Shown here one piece after another: positions 8,558-15,790 of a DNA stretch of 64,000 nucleotides. The stretch spans positions 32,001 through 96,000 of the forward strand of contig CAWDVR010000005.1 in the NCBI GenBank assembly GCA_963805975.1, read 5' to 3'. This DNA is from an uncultured Acidobacteriota bacterium. GTDB taxonomy: Bacteria > Acidobacteriota > Thermoanaerobaculia > Multivoradales > SZUA-115. The position numbers were made by a program, and so were the translations under genes. Positions within the stretch are counted from its first letter, which is position 1; each line of letters starts with the position of its first letter. The notes under the pieces are model-generated. The model was not told where the DNA came from. It made no database searches and saw nothing but the letters and a program-made list of their open reading frames with translations.

Positions 8558-9997
8558 CTAAAACGTCTCGACGAACACCCGTTCCCGGCGTTCGATGGTG
8601 TTGCCCCGGGCGTTCTCGGCCCGTAACGTCACAAAGCTCCAACCCTCCTCGAAGACCTGGATGGTGGTGGTGAACGACCCGTCCGGCGCGACGGTGATCC
8701 GCTCGCCGTTGATCGTGAGCTCGGCACCCGGCTCGGTGGCGCCGCGGAGCATGAAGATATTGCCATACGAACTGACCGAATGGAGCTGAATTTCCAGCTT
8801 TTTTCCCTCGGCGGCGTCGTTGGCGAGCGCCGCCACCCGAAAGCGGCGCGGCGCGCTCCAGGGACCCTGCACGCCGTCGCCGTCGACCGCCGCCACTCGC
8901 CACTCGAAGCTGCCCTCGCCGCGCAGGCCGAGCGTGGCGCCGGTCCGCACCCGGTCCGGGGCATCGATCACCCGGTCGGTGAAGGCGCTGTCCTTGGCGA
9001 TCTGGAGGGCATAGCGGACGGCACCGCGGATCGGGCTCCAATCGAGCGTCATCTGCTGCGCCTTGCCGAAGTTGACCTGGAAGTTGTCGGCCGGGGCGAG
9101 GAGCTGGGGCTCGCCGGGCAGGTCGCTGGGCGGTGACAGCTCGGTGCCCACCTGCACCACCTGCTTGAGCGGTGCGACCTCGCGCCGCACCCCGCTCCTG
9201 GCCGCCACCTCGACGCTCCCCTCGTAGCTCACGAAATGGGCGGTGCCGGAGTCGCGGTCGTAGGACACCGCAGCCTCGGAGTCGCGGCCCACCCGGGCGT
9301 GCGCCTCGGGCGTCGAGACGCTCGAGTCGCGCTCGCTGGTCTCCATGTTCACCCAGCCGTATTGCATGCTGATCGCCTGCTCCGGGCTGCCGCCGGGCGA
9401 GCTGGTGCGATAGACGCGGAACATGGTGTTCGCCCGCACCACCGAGCGCGTGCCGTTGGCGAAAGCGATCTCCGCGCTGCCGCCGGGACCGGTACGCACG
9501 TAGTCGCCCGAGGAGAGGGCGGCGCCGTCGGCCGCCGGCTCCCAGTCGCCGCTCTCGCCACGGCTGTACTGGACGCTGCCGTCGACGGTCAAGAACCGGG
9601 CCTCGCCGAACGAGTCGCGGCGACCGAGCGAGACCTCGATCCACTCGAGCAGGCTCCTGGCGCTCCTGGCGCTGGTGAGCGCGCGGGAGTGGTCCCCCTC
9701 GTCGTAGCTCGCGCGGGCCTCGCCGGCGGTCCTCCTGGCGTCCTCGAGCTCGGCGCGATAGGAGCCCACGCCGACCTGTTGATCGAGCTCGGCCACCAAC
9801 CCCTCGACCGCGGCGATCGCGGCCTCCGCGGCGCGCTTGTCGAGACCCTTCTCCCAGGAGCGGAACCCGAAGGCTCCCGCCACCAGCGCCGCGGCCACGA
9901 GCCCAAGGGTCGTCCACGCTCGGAGGGAGTCCACCGAGATGCTGTACCAGTCATTGAGCCGGCGCTTTTTCTTGTCGGCCACTCTGTTCTCGGCCAC
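8558..9997 (-). CDS. Membrane-anchored FecR-domain protein with C-terminal Ig/FN3-like domains
   Basis: N-terminal TM; GDYVRTGPGGSAEIAF FecR-like motif; beta-rich C-terminus (WRVAAVD, GATEPGAELTING). Confidence 0.6.
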   Translation of the reverse strand: MAENRVADKKKRRLNDWYSISVDSLRAWTTLGLVAAALVAGAFGFRSWEKGLDKRAAEAAIAAVEGLVAELDQQVGVGSYRAELEDARRTAGEARASYDEGDHSRALTSARSARSLLEWIEVSLGRRDSFGEARFLTVDGSVQYSRGESGDWEPAADGAALSSGDYVRTGPGGSAEIAFANGTRSVVRANTMFRVYRTSSPGGSPEQAISMQYGWVNMETSERDSSVSTPEAHARVGRDSEAAVSYDRDSGTAHFVSYEGSVEVAARSGVRREVAPLKQVVQVGTELSPPSDLPGEPQLLAPADNFQVNFGKAQQMTLDWSPIRGAVRYALQIAKDSAFTDRVIDAPDRVRTGATLGLRGEGSFEWRVAAVDGDGVQGPWSAPRRFRVAALANDAAEGKKLEIQLHSVSSYGNIFMLRGATEPGAELTINGERITVAPDGSFTTTIQVFEEGWSFVTLRAENARGNTIERRERVFVETF

Positions 9998-10198: not shown

Positions 10199-12148
10199 AT
10201 GCTTCAGTGGACGCGCGACAACCTCAAGCATCTCAAGTGGACTCTCTGGCCGGTGATCCTCGCCTTCGTGGCCGGCTTTGTCGTCATTCCCCAGTTCGAC
10301 AGCGGTGGTGGCGGCGACGATCGGGTGGCGACGATCGGCGACGAGACCATCACCCAGGCCGAGTTCGAGCGCGAGTATCGCAATCTCCAGGATCAGTACC
10401 GGAGCTCGTTGGGCGAGCGCTTCACGCCCGAGCTCGCCCAGCAGTTCCGCCTGCCGCTGCAGGCGATCAACCAGCTCGCGGCCGAGAAGCTGATGGTGGA
10501 AGAGGCGCGGCGCGCGGGCCTCACGGTGACGGATGCCGAGCTCCGCCAGCTCCTCATCGACATGCCGGGACTGCAGGACGAGAGCGGCCGGTTCATCGGC
10601 TCCAGGCGCTACGCGGAGGTGCTCAGGGCGAACGGCTACCCTTCGCCCGCGGCTTTCGAGAGCGGGCTGCGCGAGAACCTGCTCGGCCAGAAGCTGCAAG
10701 CGGCGCTGGCCGCCGGCGTCTACATCCCGGACGCTGCGGTCGAGGCGCGCTATCGGCGGGACGTGGAGAAAGCCCAGATCCGCTACGTAGAGGTCCCCGG
10801 CTCCCGCTTCGCCGCCGATGTGAAGGTCGAGCCCGAGGAGGTCAAGTCCTTCTTCGACGCCCGGCGCGAGGAATACCGCCGCCCCGAGCAGCGCGTGGTC
10901 AGCTATCTGCTCGTCGACGCCAACCGCCTGGGCGCGACGCTCGAGGTCCCACAGTCGGAGATCGCCGACTTCTACGGACAGAACCAGGCCGACTACTCGC
11001 GAGAGGAGCAGGTCCACGCCCGGCACATCCTGATCAAGGTGGACGACAACCGCAGCGACGAGGCGGCGAAGGCCTTCGCCGCGGAGGTGCGCCGGCGGCT
11101 CGAGGGCGGGGCCGATTTCGCGGCCGTGGCCAAGGAGGTGTCCGAGGACCCCGGCTCGAAGCCGCGCGGCGGGGACCTCGGCTACCTGTCCCGCAACGGC
11201 GTGGTCCCGGAGTTCGGCGAGGCCGCCTTCTCCGCCACTCCCAACCAGCTCGTGGGCCCGGTGAAGTCCTCTCTCGGCTACCACCTGCTGGAGGTGCTCG
11301 ACCATCGCCCCGGCGGCCAGCGGCCGCTCGAGGAGGTCTCGAACCAGATCCGCCAGCGATTGCAGAACGAGCGCGCCCAGGCGCAGGCCGAGCAGAAGGC
11401 GGCGGCGCTCGCCGAGCGCATCGGGAAAGAGAAGCTCACCTCCGACGAGCAGTGGAAGGGGCTCACCGAGGGCGCGCCCTACATCACGGTCGAGAAGTCT
11501 CCGGCCTTCGGCCTGCAGGACAACGTGCCCGGCGTCGGTCGCGCGCCGGAGTTCCTGAGCACCGCCTTCGAGCTCGAGAAGGGCGAGGTCTCCGACCCCG
11601 TCCGGCTGCCTCGCGGCTGGGCGATCCTGCGCCTCGACGAGGCTCTCCCGCCTCGCCTTCCCGAGCTGACCGAGGTCGAGACGCAGGTCCGCCAGGCGCT
11701 CAACAAGCAGAAGCAGGACGGTCTCGCTCTCTCCCGCCTGGCGGCGGCGCGCCGGGAGCTCGATGCCGGCCAGAGCCTCGAGCAGGTGGCGAGCGGGCTC
11801 GGCGTCGAGGTCAAGGACAGCGGCGAGTTCGGCCATGGCCAGCCGGTCGCCGGGCTGGGCCCCAACCCCGGGTTGACCGAGGCGGCGCTCGCTCTCTCGC
11901 CCGGACAGACCGGCGGTCCGGTCGCCTCGCGGCTGGGCGCGGTCCTCTTTCAGGTGACCGAGCGCAAGAGCTGGGACCCGCAGGAGTTCGCCCGCGAGAA
12001 GAACTCCACCCGGCGGCAGTTGGAGGGCGAGCAGGCGCAGCGCCTCCTCGCCTCGAGGATCGAGAGCCGCATTCGCGAGGATCTGGACTTCAGCAAGCGG
12101 TTCATCGCCGCCTACGGGGCGCCTCCCGAGCCGGCGCAGAAGCGTTGA
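10199..12148 (+). CDS. SurA N-terminal / parvulin PPIase (PpiD-like)
   Basis: N-terminal TM, VHARHILIK, SEDPGSKPRGGDLG, GYHLLEV. Confidence 0.88.
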   Translation: MLQWTRDNLKHLKWTLWPVILAFVAGFVVIPQFDSGGGGDDRVATIGDETITQAEFEREYRNLQDQYRSSLGERFTPELAQQFRLPLQAINQLAAEKLMVEEARRAGLTVTDAELRQLLIDMPGLQDESGRFIGSRRYAEVLRANGYPSPAAFESGLRENLLGQKLQAALAAGVYIPDAAVEARYRRDVEKAQIRYVEVPGSRFAADVKVEPEEVKSFFDARREEYRRPEQRVVSYLLVDANRLGATLEVPQSEIADFYGQNQADYSREEQVHARHILIKVDDNRSDEAAKAFAAEVRRRLEGGADFAAVAKEVSEDPGSKPRGGDLGYLSRNGVVPEFGEAAFSATPNQLVGPVKSSLGYHLLEVLDHRPGGQRPLEEVSNQIRQRLQNERAQAQAEQKAAALAERIGKEKLTSDEQWKGLTEGAPYITVEKSPAFGLQDNVPGVGRAPEFLSTAFELEKGEVSDPVRLPRGWAILRLDEALPPRLPELTEVETQVRQALNKQKQDGLALSRLAAARRELDAGQSLEQVASGLGVEVKDSGEFGHGQPVAGLGPNPGLTEAALALSPGQTGGPVASRLGAVLFQVTERKSWDPQEFAREKNSTRRQLEGEQAQRLLASRIESRIREDLDFSKRFIAAYGAPPEPAQKR

Positions 12149-12738
12149 TCGGCTATCTCAAGGGCGTACCGCTCGCGGTGCGGCCGGACTCCGTCCTGCT
12201 CGACGTGGGTGGCGTCGGGTACGCCCTTTCGATTCCCCTCTCGACCTACTACGCCCTGGAGCGCGCGGGGGAAGGGCGGCCCGTGGGGCTCTATGTCCAC
12301 ACCCATCTGCGGGAGGACGAGATCAGCCTGTACGGCTTCTCGACGGAGCTCGAGAAGCTGCTCTTCGAACGGCTGATCGCGGTGTCGGGCGTCGGCCCTC
12401 GGCTCGCCCGCGTGCTCCTCTCCGGCATGCCGCCGGAGGAGGTCATCGCCGCTCTCGCCGCCGGCGACGCGACGCGCCTGACACGCATCCCCGGCGTCGG
12501 CCGCAAGACCGCCGAGCGGCTGGTGCTGGAGCTTGCGGACAAGATTCGGGAGCTGGGCCTCCCTCTACAGGCCCCACCCGCCATGGCGGCCGACGGCGAG
12601 GTGATCTCGGCGCTCGTCAACCTCGGCTACAAGATCGCCCTCGCCGAGAAGGCGGTGGCCGAGGCGCGGCGGCTGGCACCGGACGCCGAGTTCCACCAGA
12701 TCCTGAGAGCGAGCCTGCAGCGGCTGGCTCGCGGCTGA
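12145..12738 (+). CDS. ruvA: Holliday junction branch migration protein RuvA
   Basis: TTG start overlapping upstream stop; IGYLKG, DVGGVGY, LYGF, IPGVGRKTAERLVLEL, ALVNLGY. Confidence 0.95.
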   Translation: MIGYLKGVPLAVRPDSVLLDVGGVGYALSIPLSTYYALERAGEGRPVGLYVHTHLREDEISLYGFSTELEKLLFERLIAVSGVGPRLARVLLSGMPPEEVIAALAAGDATRLTRIPGVGRKTAERLVLELADKIRELGLPLQAPPAMAADGEVISALVNLGYKIALAEKAVAEARRLAPDAEFHQILRASLQRLARG

Positions 12739-12967
12739 GAGCGCTGCTTTTCCGAGGTCCCCACCTCGGCTGGTCCCGGAGTTACTTTTTCTCGACGGCA
12801 GGTCTTATACTCTTGTGTGCAGACATGGAGATGCCTTCGGAGTCTTCGCGGGTCGACCGGCGCCCAATGACCTGTCCCTGCTCGGTCGAGGCCCCGCACC
12901 TCTGAGGCATCAACGTCGGTGTCGGAACATTTCCGGCTGAACCCGGCTTCCTCATGGAGGGCTGGCC

Positions 12968-13063
12968 ATGCGTCTCCTGCTCTGGTTGCTTTCGCTGCTC
13001 GAAAATCCTCTCACCCCGTTCCGCGCCATCGAGGAGGGCTCCCTCAACGACCCCGATGGTTAG
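12968..13063 (+). CDS. Small peptide MRLLLWLLSLLENPLTPFRAIEEGSLNDPDG (31 aa), candidate signalling or precursor peptide
   Basis: GGAGG at 12956-12960, 7 nt before ATG; hydrophobic N-terminus, acidic DPDG C-terminus; below ORF-track cutoff. Confidence 0.6.
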   Translation: MRLLLWLLSLLENPLTPFRAIEEGSLNDPDG

Positions 13064-13132
13064 TGTCGCGCCCTACCCAGGCTCGCGAAATGGCACCTCG
13101 CGAGCGACTCCTGAGGTATAGTCGTGACAGTC

Positions 13133-13414
13133 ATGTCTGGGATCTACGCCGCGCGAGCGCGCGGCAGGAGCGCGACCGAGGGCAAGGCGGAAGGCCCCTT
13201 CGTCGAGTTCCTGCGCACGGTTCAGCCGAAGGCTACTCGGCTGATGGAGAGTTACTGCCTGGCGCCCGAGGCCACGTCCTCGATCTTTCACGACACGCTC
13301 GAAACTCTGGTGTGGAAGTGGGAGACGGTGCGAGATCGCGAGAGCTGGCTGCTGGCGGTCCTGCAACGCAAATGTGAGCTTCTCGCCCGCCCGCCCGGCG
13401 AGGTGCGGCGGTGA
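13133..13414 (+). CDS. Small protein resembling an isolated, degenerate ECF sigma region 2
   Basis: FVEFLRTVQPK...IFHDTLETLVWKWETVRDRESWLLAVLQRKC follows the sigma2 pattern; no sigma4; stop overlaps next start (GTGA). Confidence 0.55.
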   Translation: MSGIYAARARGRSATEGKAEGPFVEFLRTVQPKATRLMESYCLAPEATSSIFHDTLETLVWKWETVRDRESWLLAVLQRKCELLARPPGEVRR

Positions 13415-14703
13415 GCGGAGATCGATCTCTCCCACCGGAGCCTACACCTTTGGTGCCCGCGCTCCGGGCCCTCCCGGCGCCGCGCTCGACCGCACCTGCC
13501 GACGATCCCGCGGTCGACTACAACGCCGTCTTCGACCGGGTCTTTGCCGAGGCCGTGCGCCACGAGCGCAGCCTGGCTATGGAACGGGTGGAGGCGCTGG
13601 CGCTCGCCACCGAGCTCGAGGGCCAGCCGCCACGGCGGCGGCGCCTCCTGGTACGCAACAGCCGTCGCTACCAGACCTGGTCCATCTGCCAGGGCCTCAT
13701 CGACCGCAGCCACCAGCTCGGCTTCAACGAGCCCCAGGAAGGCCTTGACCTGGCCGAGCTCGCCACCGAGGTGGCCGAGCGGCTCGACGCCAGGCACTAC
13801 GGACCGATCCAGGTCCGGGACATGAAAGCCGCCGCCTGGAGCCAGTACGCCAACGCCCAGCGCGTAGTGTCCGACTTGCGTAAGGCGGACGAGGCGTTCG
13901 GCATCGCGGAGCACTTCCTGGCTGGCGGTACGGGCGACCTCCTGGCGCTCGCCCGCTTCTACGACCTCAAGGCGTCGCTGCGGCGCGCGCAGCGGCGGTT
14001 CGAGGAGAGCGAGGCCCTGCTGGGCTCGGCCATCGACCTCTATCGCCAGCTCCACGATTCCCGCCGCGAGGGCGGCGCGCTGATCAAGCTGGCGGCCGTC
14101 CGCGACCTGCAGGGCCGGCTCGAGAGCGCCATCGAGCTCGTGCAGCAAGGCTCCAGCCTGCTCGACCCGGTGGCCGACCTGCGCCAGATCAACCTGGCGC
14201 AGGCCAACCTCATCAGTCATCTCGCCGATGCCGGCCGCTGCCTCGAGGCCCAGGTCCTGCTGTCGCGCGCACGCCGGGCGCAAGTGGCCGAGGGGGACGC
14301 GATCCCGCTGCTGCGCTTGCGCTGGGTGGAAGGCAAGATCGCCGCCGGACTCGGCCACACCGCGCTCGCCGAGCGTGCCTTCAAGGACGCGCGGCAGGGC
14401 TTCGTCGACAACGGCCTGGGCTACGACGCGGCGCTGGTCTCGCTCGAGCTCGCCGAGCTCTTTGCGCGCGCCGGCCGCGCTGGCGAGATGAAGGTCCTCG
14501 CTCTCGAGATGCTGCCCATCTTCCGCTCCCGCGACGTGCACCGGGAGGCCCTCGCCGCGCTTCTGGTGCTGCGCCAGGCGATCGAGGCCGAGGCCGCCAC
14601 CACGGCGGTGATCGGTGAGGTGCGCACCTTCCTGCGCCAGGCCCGCGACAACCCGCGCCTGCGCTACGAGGGATCGGTATCCACCGTGGGCGCCACCGGT
14701 TGA
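13411..14703 (+). CDS. Tetratricopeptide-repeat-like helical protein
   Basis: Repeated helical motifs ([56 protein letters not shown]). Confidence 0.75.
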
Positions 14704-14764
14704 GCGCCCGCTCGCCGTTCCGCATCGAGCGCGGGCTCCGGCGACCCAGCCGCTCCCTGCCGCG

Positions 14765-15790
<1,026 letters not shown>

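Follow-up and report, generated by a model that had tools for sequence, protein, structure and literature searches.

The 31-residue open reading frame between ruvA and ruvB in the window (the whole stretch of DNA that was analysed, 64,000 nucleotides) is, judging from substitutions among related genomes, a real and conserved gene under purifying selection. We hypothesize that its product is a ligand of the adjacent TPR protein, recognized through the acidic core at its C-terminus, and that the family to which this pair belongs couples peptides to the control of ECF sigma factors through TPR anti-sigma proteins; we regard this reading as somewhat probable. The acidic D-P-D-G end of the 31-mer is predicted to bind the groove of the cytoplasmic TPR protein, and binding would switch this regulator. 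The TPR family would control ECF-type sigma factors, as suggested by the N-terminal zinc motif of most members and by the position of many of them after a sigma gene. The short copy, which has no Sec signal, would either stay in the cytoplasm with its receptor or leave by a non-Sec route. The evidence consists of genomic linkage, selection, joint loss and the receptor fold, from which we infer binding, processing, compartment and output.

The peptide gene and its cassette

The open reading frame, its 31-residue sequence, the GGAGG motif and the 7-nt spacer are all as given in the original prediction (Table 1). Its description as unannotated is right only in the sense that it is unnamed or "hypothetical" in a public protein collection, where gene callers had already called the exact peptide and five of its six homologues. 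The peptide matches nothing in Pfam or NCBIfam, and a promoter and terminator consensus scan of the locus returned no full promoter and no terminator.

Table 1. Features of the cassette and its flanks (window positions)
Feature	Position	Strand	Remark
ruvA	12145-12738	+	left flank
TATACT, -10-like hexamer	12806-12811	+	candidate promoter, upstream of the peptide gene
Shine-Dalgarno GGAGG	12956-12960	+	7 nt ahead of the peptide ATG
31-aa peptide gene	12968-13063	+	ATG to TAG; hydrophobic N-terminal helix, linker, C-terminal core
Hydrophobic run, residues 3-11	12974-13000	+	probable counterpart of the post-signal helix in long precursors, not a Sec signal
Core decapeptide E-E-G-S-L-N-D-P-D-G	13031-13060	+	fits the family consensus except for Asn at a usually hydrophobic position
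TATAGT, -10-like hexamer	13117-13122	+	candidate separate promoter, 10 nt ahead of the sigma2-only start
93-aa sigma2-only protein	13133-13414	+	region 2 homologue of a Thermoanaerobaculia ECF sigma family; without region 4
430-aa soluble TPR protein	13411-14703	+	candidate receptor; start overlaps the sigma2-only stop
ruvB	14750-15790	+	right flank

Homologous frames of 31-33 residues, ending in DP[DNE]G with zero to four further residues, are found at six loci in four relatives: at the equivalent site in G001, G004, G007 and G005, and also in the second cassette that G007 and G005 carry at another site. The frame, whose loss in relatives would have spoken against the original prediction, is kept at all six, and purine-rich Shine-Dalgarno-like sites precede the homologues. 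M1, D28, P29 and G31 are invariant in all seven short peptides. The dN/dS ratios across orthologous loci, also proposed there as a check, are 0.25 for the present genome (G000) against G001, and 0.19 and 0.30 for two G005/G007 pairs; over these three independent pairs the pooled Fisher p is 9e-7, and G000/G001 alone, the pair that includes the 31-residue frame itself, gives p 0.006. Third codon positions hold 37 of the 73 differences (p 0.002), and the coding identity of 0.66-0.83 in the three independent pairs exceeds the flank identity of 0.49-0.67. Deeper pairs are weaker, with dN/dS of 0.61 (G000/G004) and 0.48. Overlapping frames (152 residues at 12919, 55 residues at 12954 and 31 residues on the minus strand) were set aside: the substitutions point to the peptide frame, and the two alternative plus-strand frames of G001 run into stops after 76 and 66 codons. 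DPxG is the type of autocleavage site found in Rhs proteins. Such a site was rejected for the peptide end, which has a single motif followed by a stop and no core or toxin domain.

In one Thermoanaerobaculia family, represented by eight genomes in the searched set, a cassette with the order peptide, sigma2-only, TPR lies between ruvA and ruvB. The peptide gene is separated from the TPR gene by 347 nt, with the sigma2-only gene in between; at many paralogous loci precursor and TPR genes are direct neighbours. Peptide and TPR are both present in five of the eight genomes and both absent from three (G002, G003 and G006), where ruvB directly follows the 93-residue frame; the sigma2-only gene is found in all eight, just upstream of the TPR gene or of ruvB. 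In a tree of PpiD and RuvA from seven family genomes and nine outgroups (G005 was left out, its contig having neither ppiD nor ruvA), the three peptide-less genomes group in a single clade (100/99), which lies within the peptide-bearing genomes and excludes G007. They therefore record one joint loss of peptide and TPR and not three, and neighbouring genes can be deleted together without their products binding each other. The whole cassette, with its own peptide, is present again at a second site in G005 and G007. Neither a sigma2 nor a TPR match was found upstream of ruvB at any of 37 outgroup loci (ruvA in view at 28), which argues against ancestral presence at this site across the order, and therefore the cassette entered between ruvA and ruvB in the ancestor of the family. 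Elsewhere in the window, a 479-residue protein that carries a FecR domain and, at its C-terminus, an Ig-like match is encoded upstream of mreB (8558-9997, minus strand).

The D-P-x-G precursors and the question of export

Frames that end in the motif exceed chance, as the original prediction required. Among 122,601 stop-terminated six-frame segments of G000, five end in DP[DN]G, compared to one over the 11 other orderings of DPDG and one over the 23 other orderings of DPNG. Six segments end in DP[DNW]G, three of them upstream of a TPR paralogue and three elsewhere. For linkage we counted Shine-Dalgarno-led frames of 20-170 residues with DP[DNW]G in the last 45 residues and no more than 950 nt upstream of a TPR or control gene; such precursors stand upstream of 6 of the 14 G000 TPR loci and of 0 of 990 control long frames (p 2e-12). 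With a looser motif, picked post hoc, the counts are 12 of 14 and 20 of 990.

Of 41 genomes from the order, 32 have the TPR family, with at most 41 matches in any one of them. Most precursors have 70-160 residues and consist of a Sec-type signal, a W/F/L-rich helix and one to seven cores; the majority of genome copies are signal-bearing precursors of 90-130 residues, often with two to four cores. Short frames ending in the motif, as described in the original prediction, do exist and are a minority in G000. The recurrence of G-x-x-x-D-P-x-G beside TPR and sigma genes in Thermoanaerobaculia is supported, and the proposed link to CHAT genes is not: of 22 CHAT matches in G000, none comes closer than about 32 kb to a TPR locus (14 in all), none is on the peptide contig, and the cassette itself contains no CHAT gene. 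These 22 matches are spread over contigs C1-C4 and C6, and several cluster at C2:97,799-118,675.

From 51 cores in 29 long precursors of other genomes, selected by a rule that includes D-P-x-G, we derived the consensus [DKE]-[AED]-G-x-x-[IML]-D-P-[ND]-G. Glycine is found at -4 in 45 of the 51 cores. The asparagine before D-P in the 31-mer departs from this consensus, which counts against the ligand reading. A matrix of the long-precursor cores ranks the last ten residues of the peptide 10th of 78,389 G000 segments, and 10 of the best 25 segments are TPR-adjacent precursors; together with the invariant D28, P29 and G31, this rank supports the earlier view that the C-terminal residues, about ten in number, are the conserved part. 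The 31-residue frame is absent from the best 27 matches of an HMM of the long precursors (helix and core). A profile of the seven short peptides matches a 100-residue, four-core precursor at residues 20-45, that is, helix and first core, with an E-value of 4e-5 that sums four repeats. Among the 18 matches of this profile, at least the four large ones scanned are unrelated Ig/PKD/WD40 repeat proteins, and therefore the D-P-x-G motif alone is weak evidence.

The last point touches the possibility that the peptide is a small membrane-associated or metal-binding molecule, co-inherited with the TPR protein and not bound by it, in which D-P-D-G forms a turn or a calcium-type motif. DPDG-type strings recur in Ig/PKD/cadherin-like repeats and the net charge of the 31-mer is -3, both of which would fit such a role, but the close pairing with a single TPR family, repeated throughout the order, the joint loss of the two genes and a hydrophobic run too short to span a membrane make it decidedly improbable.

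The conserved C-terminus had also been described as a possible modified core peptide. A RiPP precursor with chemical modifications in its C-terminal core would share the leader-plus-core layout and the multi-core precursors seen here. Asx-Gly pairs are prone to isoaspartate formation, a general tendency that would favour this explanation as well. The cassette contains no RiPP-type modifying enzyme, however, the sigma2-only and TPR genes being the only ones beside the peptide (enzymes could be encoded elsewhere); the ATP-grasp gene past ruvB is of the acyl-CoA synthetase type and is retained in peptide-less genomes; and the third motif position in the long-precursor cores tolerates L, Y, W, E and G. 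We consider modification highly improbable.

The motif is not obligatory for the family. Of 18 loci where a TPR gene comes after an ECF gene, 13 have a precursor-like frame directly upstream of the sigma gene and none was found at the other five; in four of the 13 the helix is kept and D-P-x-G is gone. Four signal-bearing precursors with the W/F/L helix that have lost D-P-x-G (L147, L155, L156 and L159) come from genomes of family f9 that have one match to the peptide-associated ECF family. Signal-less forms of 25-36 residues also adjoin full-length ECF genes in four other families, represented by seven genomes (G010, G022, G025, G057, G071, G093 and G141); the short form therefore recurs and is not the product of local damage. 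G000 probably encodes a second signal-less precursor at C1:60938 (plus strand), of about 35 residues and ending in a D-P-V-G motif, with a TPR match downstream at C1:61315. A dispersed DNA repeat of the same genome also reads as a similar short DPDG peptide (C1+315173, C1-62438, C2-744462, C3-833516 and C5+131078); it is likely a repetitive element outside the precursor family.

Could the N-terminus of the 31-mer serve as a minimal export signal, as originally proposed? We judged this by composition. The first five residues are net positive only in the G000 peptide (one of seven), an A-x-A site is found in none of the seven short peptides, and the hydrophobic run comprises about nine residues, several of the seven being amphipathic with acidic residues in the helix. 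Moreover, this run aligns with the W/F/L-rich helix located after the genuine signal peptide of the long paralogues. The proposal is thus unsupported, and by this alignment the short peptides may be read as a long precursor minus its signal peptide, with the 31-mer comprising helix and core.

A secreted cell-to-cell signal, in which residues 1 to about 20 direct Sec export and are cut, and the freed C-terminal decapeptide is imported again and sensed, is therefore quite improbable. It would draw on the M-R start with its nine hydrophobic residues, on the long paralogues with clear Sec-type signals and tandem cores, which resemble duplicated Phr propeptides as described in the accessible text of PMC11343458, and on two family-5 peptide-binding proteins of G000 as possible importers. 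Against it stand the N-terminal composition and alignment just described, and the finding of no SbmA/BacA in G000, which is 96% complete.

Re-import across two membranes would not be needed if the precursors monitored the export machinery or the membrane and were sensed in the cytoplasm before export. Long forms would then pile up at a stalled Sec system and bind the TPR protein, the short form would define the set point as a ligand that is either constitutive or partitioned to the membrane, and no intercellular signal would exist. The helix is the most constant feature, retained even where D-P-x-G is lost, and signal-less forms recur in several families, both of which would fit. Precursors with as many as seven tandem cores, and genomes with a dozen diverged pairs, are better explained by released, pair-specific signals, however, and we consider such a monitor improbable.

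Returning to the ligand reading, a peptide with no Sec signal is made in the compartment of its receptor and may act there. If the reading holds, action without export is somewhat more probable than export by a non-Sec route.

The candidate receptor and known peptide-receptor systems

The 430-residue protein matches TPR_12 at 30.7 bits, just above the cut-off of 30.1. Its predicted model (pLDDT 91.6) has one long helix at residues 37-70 followed by TPRs. The model resembles TPR superhelices that bind peptides: superposition on known structures gives a Z-score of 23.3 for LGN (rmsd 4.8 over 301 residues), 21.2 for RapI (5.0 over 310), 21.0 for NprR-NprX (5.7 over 311) and 20.9 for a phage Rap (3.8 over 280). 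Because the best matches are eukaryotic LGN/Pins, and because identities are 9-14% to Rap/NprR (9-19% overall), the fold match is generic. No helix-turn-helix family was matched in the protein, and the Rap matches begin near residue 91. No hydrophobic stretch of membrane length (19-mer above 1.8) was found in any of 120 TPR sequences.

Conserved residues of the TPR protein (W143, N148, R151, K187, R191, R258, N266, R302, W305, H377 and R378) are located on alternate helices. This basic, asparagine-rich set would suit an acidic extended peptide, and TPR geometry suggests that it faces the groove. In two loci (L053 in G007 C169 and L058 in G005 C99) a D-P-E-G peptide pairs with glutamate at the position of the conserved Asn266. 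The pairing is one shared event, and may be a lead for a contact. A metagenome scan with the TPR protein returned 15 loci, all at the paralogue level (30-48% identity).

The arrangement resembles the RRNPP(A) systems (Rap/Phr, NprR/NprX, PlcR/PapR and AimR/AimP), for which the accessible text of PMC10075063 lists a propeptide of 10-100 residues with a Sec signal or of the SHP type, and an adjacent TPR receptor of 250-500 residues; the receptors carry an N-terminal effector that is a helix-turn-helix or a three-helix bundle, according to the accessible text of PMC9765709. Here too a small peptide gene lies near a cytoplasmic TPR protein, and both sizes are within range. The conserved C-terminal core is shared, as are the tandem cores that some precursors contain (PMC11343458, accessible text), the many diverged pairs per genome and the fold, with Z-scores of about 21 for RapI, NprR-NprX and phage Rap. 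On the other hand, the acidobacterial host is diderm and belongs neither to the Bacillota nor to their mobile elements, a sigma-like gene separates peptide and TPR, and the 31-mer lacks the Sec-signal features that its long paralogues have. The TPR protein shows no helix-turn-helix match and has 9-14% identity, and the N-terminal module of its family is usually a zinc anti-sigma motif, which is absent from the 430-residue copy. By analogy we would call the pair RRNPP-like and not a member, as it departs from the accessible criteria of PMC10075063 in Sec signal, direct adjacency and host.

A parallel for the short form is offered by the streptococcal SHP and LCP peptides, which take non-Sec routes and act on cytoplasmic TPR-fold receptors (PMC10075063 and PMC10518010, accessible text). 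Rgg/SHP and RopB/LCP share with our locus a short hydrophobic peptide without a Sec signal and a cytoplasmic TPR-fold receptor, here a candidate (accessible text of the same sources). They differ in that SHP-type propeptides have basic N-termini and use PptAB, while six of the seven copies here have no basic n-region; LCPs are eight-residue mature peptides, compared to 31 residues with an acidic tail; and Rgg and RopB bind DNA. The 31-mer and its TPR protein are likely a signal-peptide-free version of a peptide-receptor design so far described in Gram-positive bacteria.

In the literature searched, which mostly excluded subscription papers, we found no description of a D-P-x-G peptide/TPR system, and the accessible sources place peptide signals with cytoplasmic TPR receptors in Bacillota and the phages that infect them. 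If our hypothesis is true, a parallel form of peptide signalling exists in diderm Acidobacteriota, wired to ECF sigma factors and not to DNA-binding domains or phosphatases. Peptide signalling would then have a wider distribution, and one would have to ask by what means a peptide gets back through two membranes. The present locus would be the handiest test case, with a single 31-mer and a single soluble receptor, and with six homologous pairs and deletions that occur naturally.

The sigma-region-2 neighbour and the output

The 93-residue frame matches a full-length ECF sigma factor from the same organisms over residues 15-78 of the latter (hhalign 95%, E 3e-8), and this relative carries Sigma70_r2. 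Pfam returned nothing for any of ten short sigma2-only members, NCBIfam nothing for the 93-residue frame, and Foldseek only weak sigma matches (E 2-4). The frame stops after the region-2 match at ten of ten loci, which leaves no region 4. We counted 32 short sigma2-only homologues of 70-128 residues. The dN/dS of the sigma2-only gene is 0.07-0.34, with 0.07 in genomes without peptide and TPR. Relatives with the frame are titled Thermoanaerobaculia or Acidobacteria, and the nearest atlas clusters are commonest in Acidobacteriota. A metagenome scan with the sigma2-only alignment gave 115 pattern matches, of which none was confirmed.

A -10-like hexamer is located 10-11 nt ahead of the sigma2-only ATG at all seven peptide-bearing loci, which suggests that this gene has its own promoter and counts against a leader role for the peptide frame. 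In all seven the gene appears nearly leaderless (window 13117-13135). A leader peptide acting in cis on the sigma2-TPR pair, or a decaying remnant of a long precursor, would explain why the frame is directly upstream and why all three cassette genes look shortened compared to full-length paralogues. Nevertheless, the purifying selection acts at the amino-acid level, the hexamer separates the peptide from the sigma2 gene at all seven peptide-bearing loci, and the shortened form is kept in 18 TPR and 32 sigma2-only homologues, so that either version is very hard to credit.

Under the ligand reading, the output of the 430-residue protein is the weakest step, because this protein lacks the zinc motif and the gene next to it encodes only half of a sigma factor. 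An N-terminal HxxxCxxC motif is present in 82 of 102 other family members and in none of the 18 closest TPR proteins, the 430-residue one included; an RsrA anti-sigma match in two TPR paralogues is weak and below the cut-off. As the sigma2-only gene is also under selection in genomes without peptide and TPR, the three products need not form one pathway. RsrA-like zinc anti-sigma/ECF pairs are similar in that HxxxCxxC opens the sequence of most TPR paralogues and a full-length ECF gene precedes many of them; the family described here differs by the fusion to a TPR superhelix and by the peptide gene, and at the 31-mer locus both the zinc motif and sigma region 4 are missing. A stand-alone region-2 protein can be functional, as in SigO-RsoA of Bacillus subtilis (PMC8103513, accessible text), although our cassette provides no region-4 partner. 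In its accessible text, the ECF reclassification names TPR only for ECF42 and ECF267 (PMC7826278), and the sigma family may already be classified in its ECF group supplements.

Extending the hypothesis, Gram-negative Thermoanaerobaculia might run a large undescribed peptide language, in which D-P-x-G cores are read by cytoplasmic TPR zinc anti-sigma receptors over at least a dozen private channels per genome and which evolved apart from RRNPP. The 31-mer locus would then be a rewired, cell-internal channel, comprising a peptide without export signal, a receptor without zinc module and a sigma factor without region 4, and the half sigma factor would be a decoy or a co-factor linking channels. 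We offer this tentatively, and consider it rather unlikely in this full form.

Two further sigma-region-2-only frames are present in G000 (C5:626269-626090 and C4:146795-146616), so truncation recurs in this sigma family; one of the two lies between a precursor and a zinc-motif TPR gene and the other has no TPR match nearby. The same genome carries a tandem of three members of this ECF sigma family at C1:1249821-1251215 with no adjoining TPR paralogue, and these are candidate targets of the TPR proteins.
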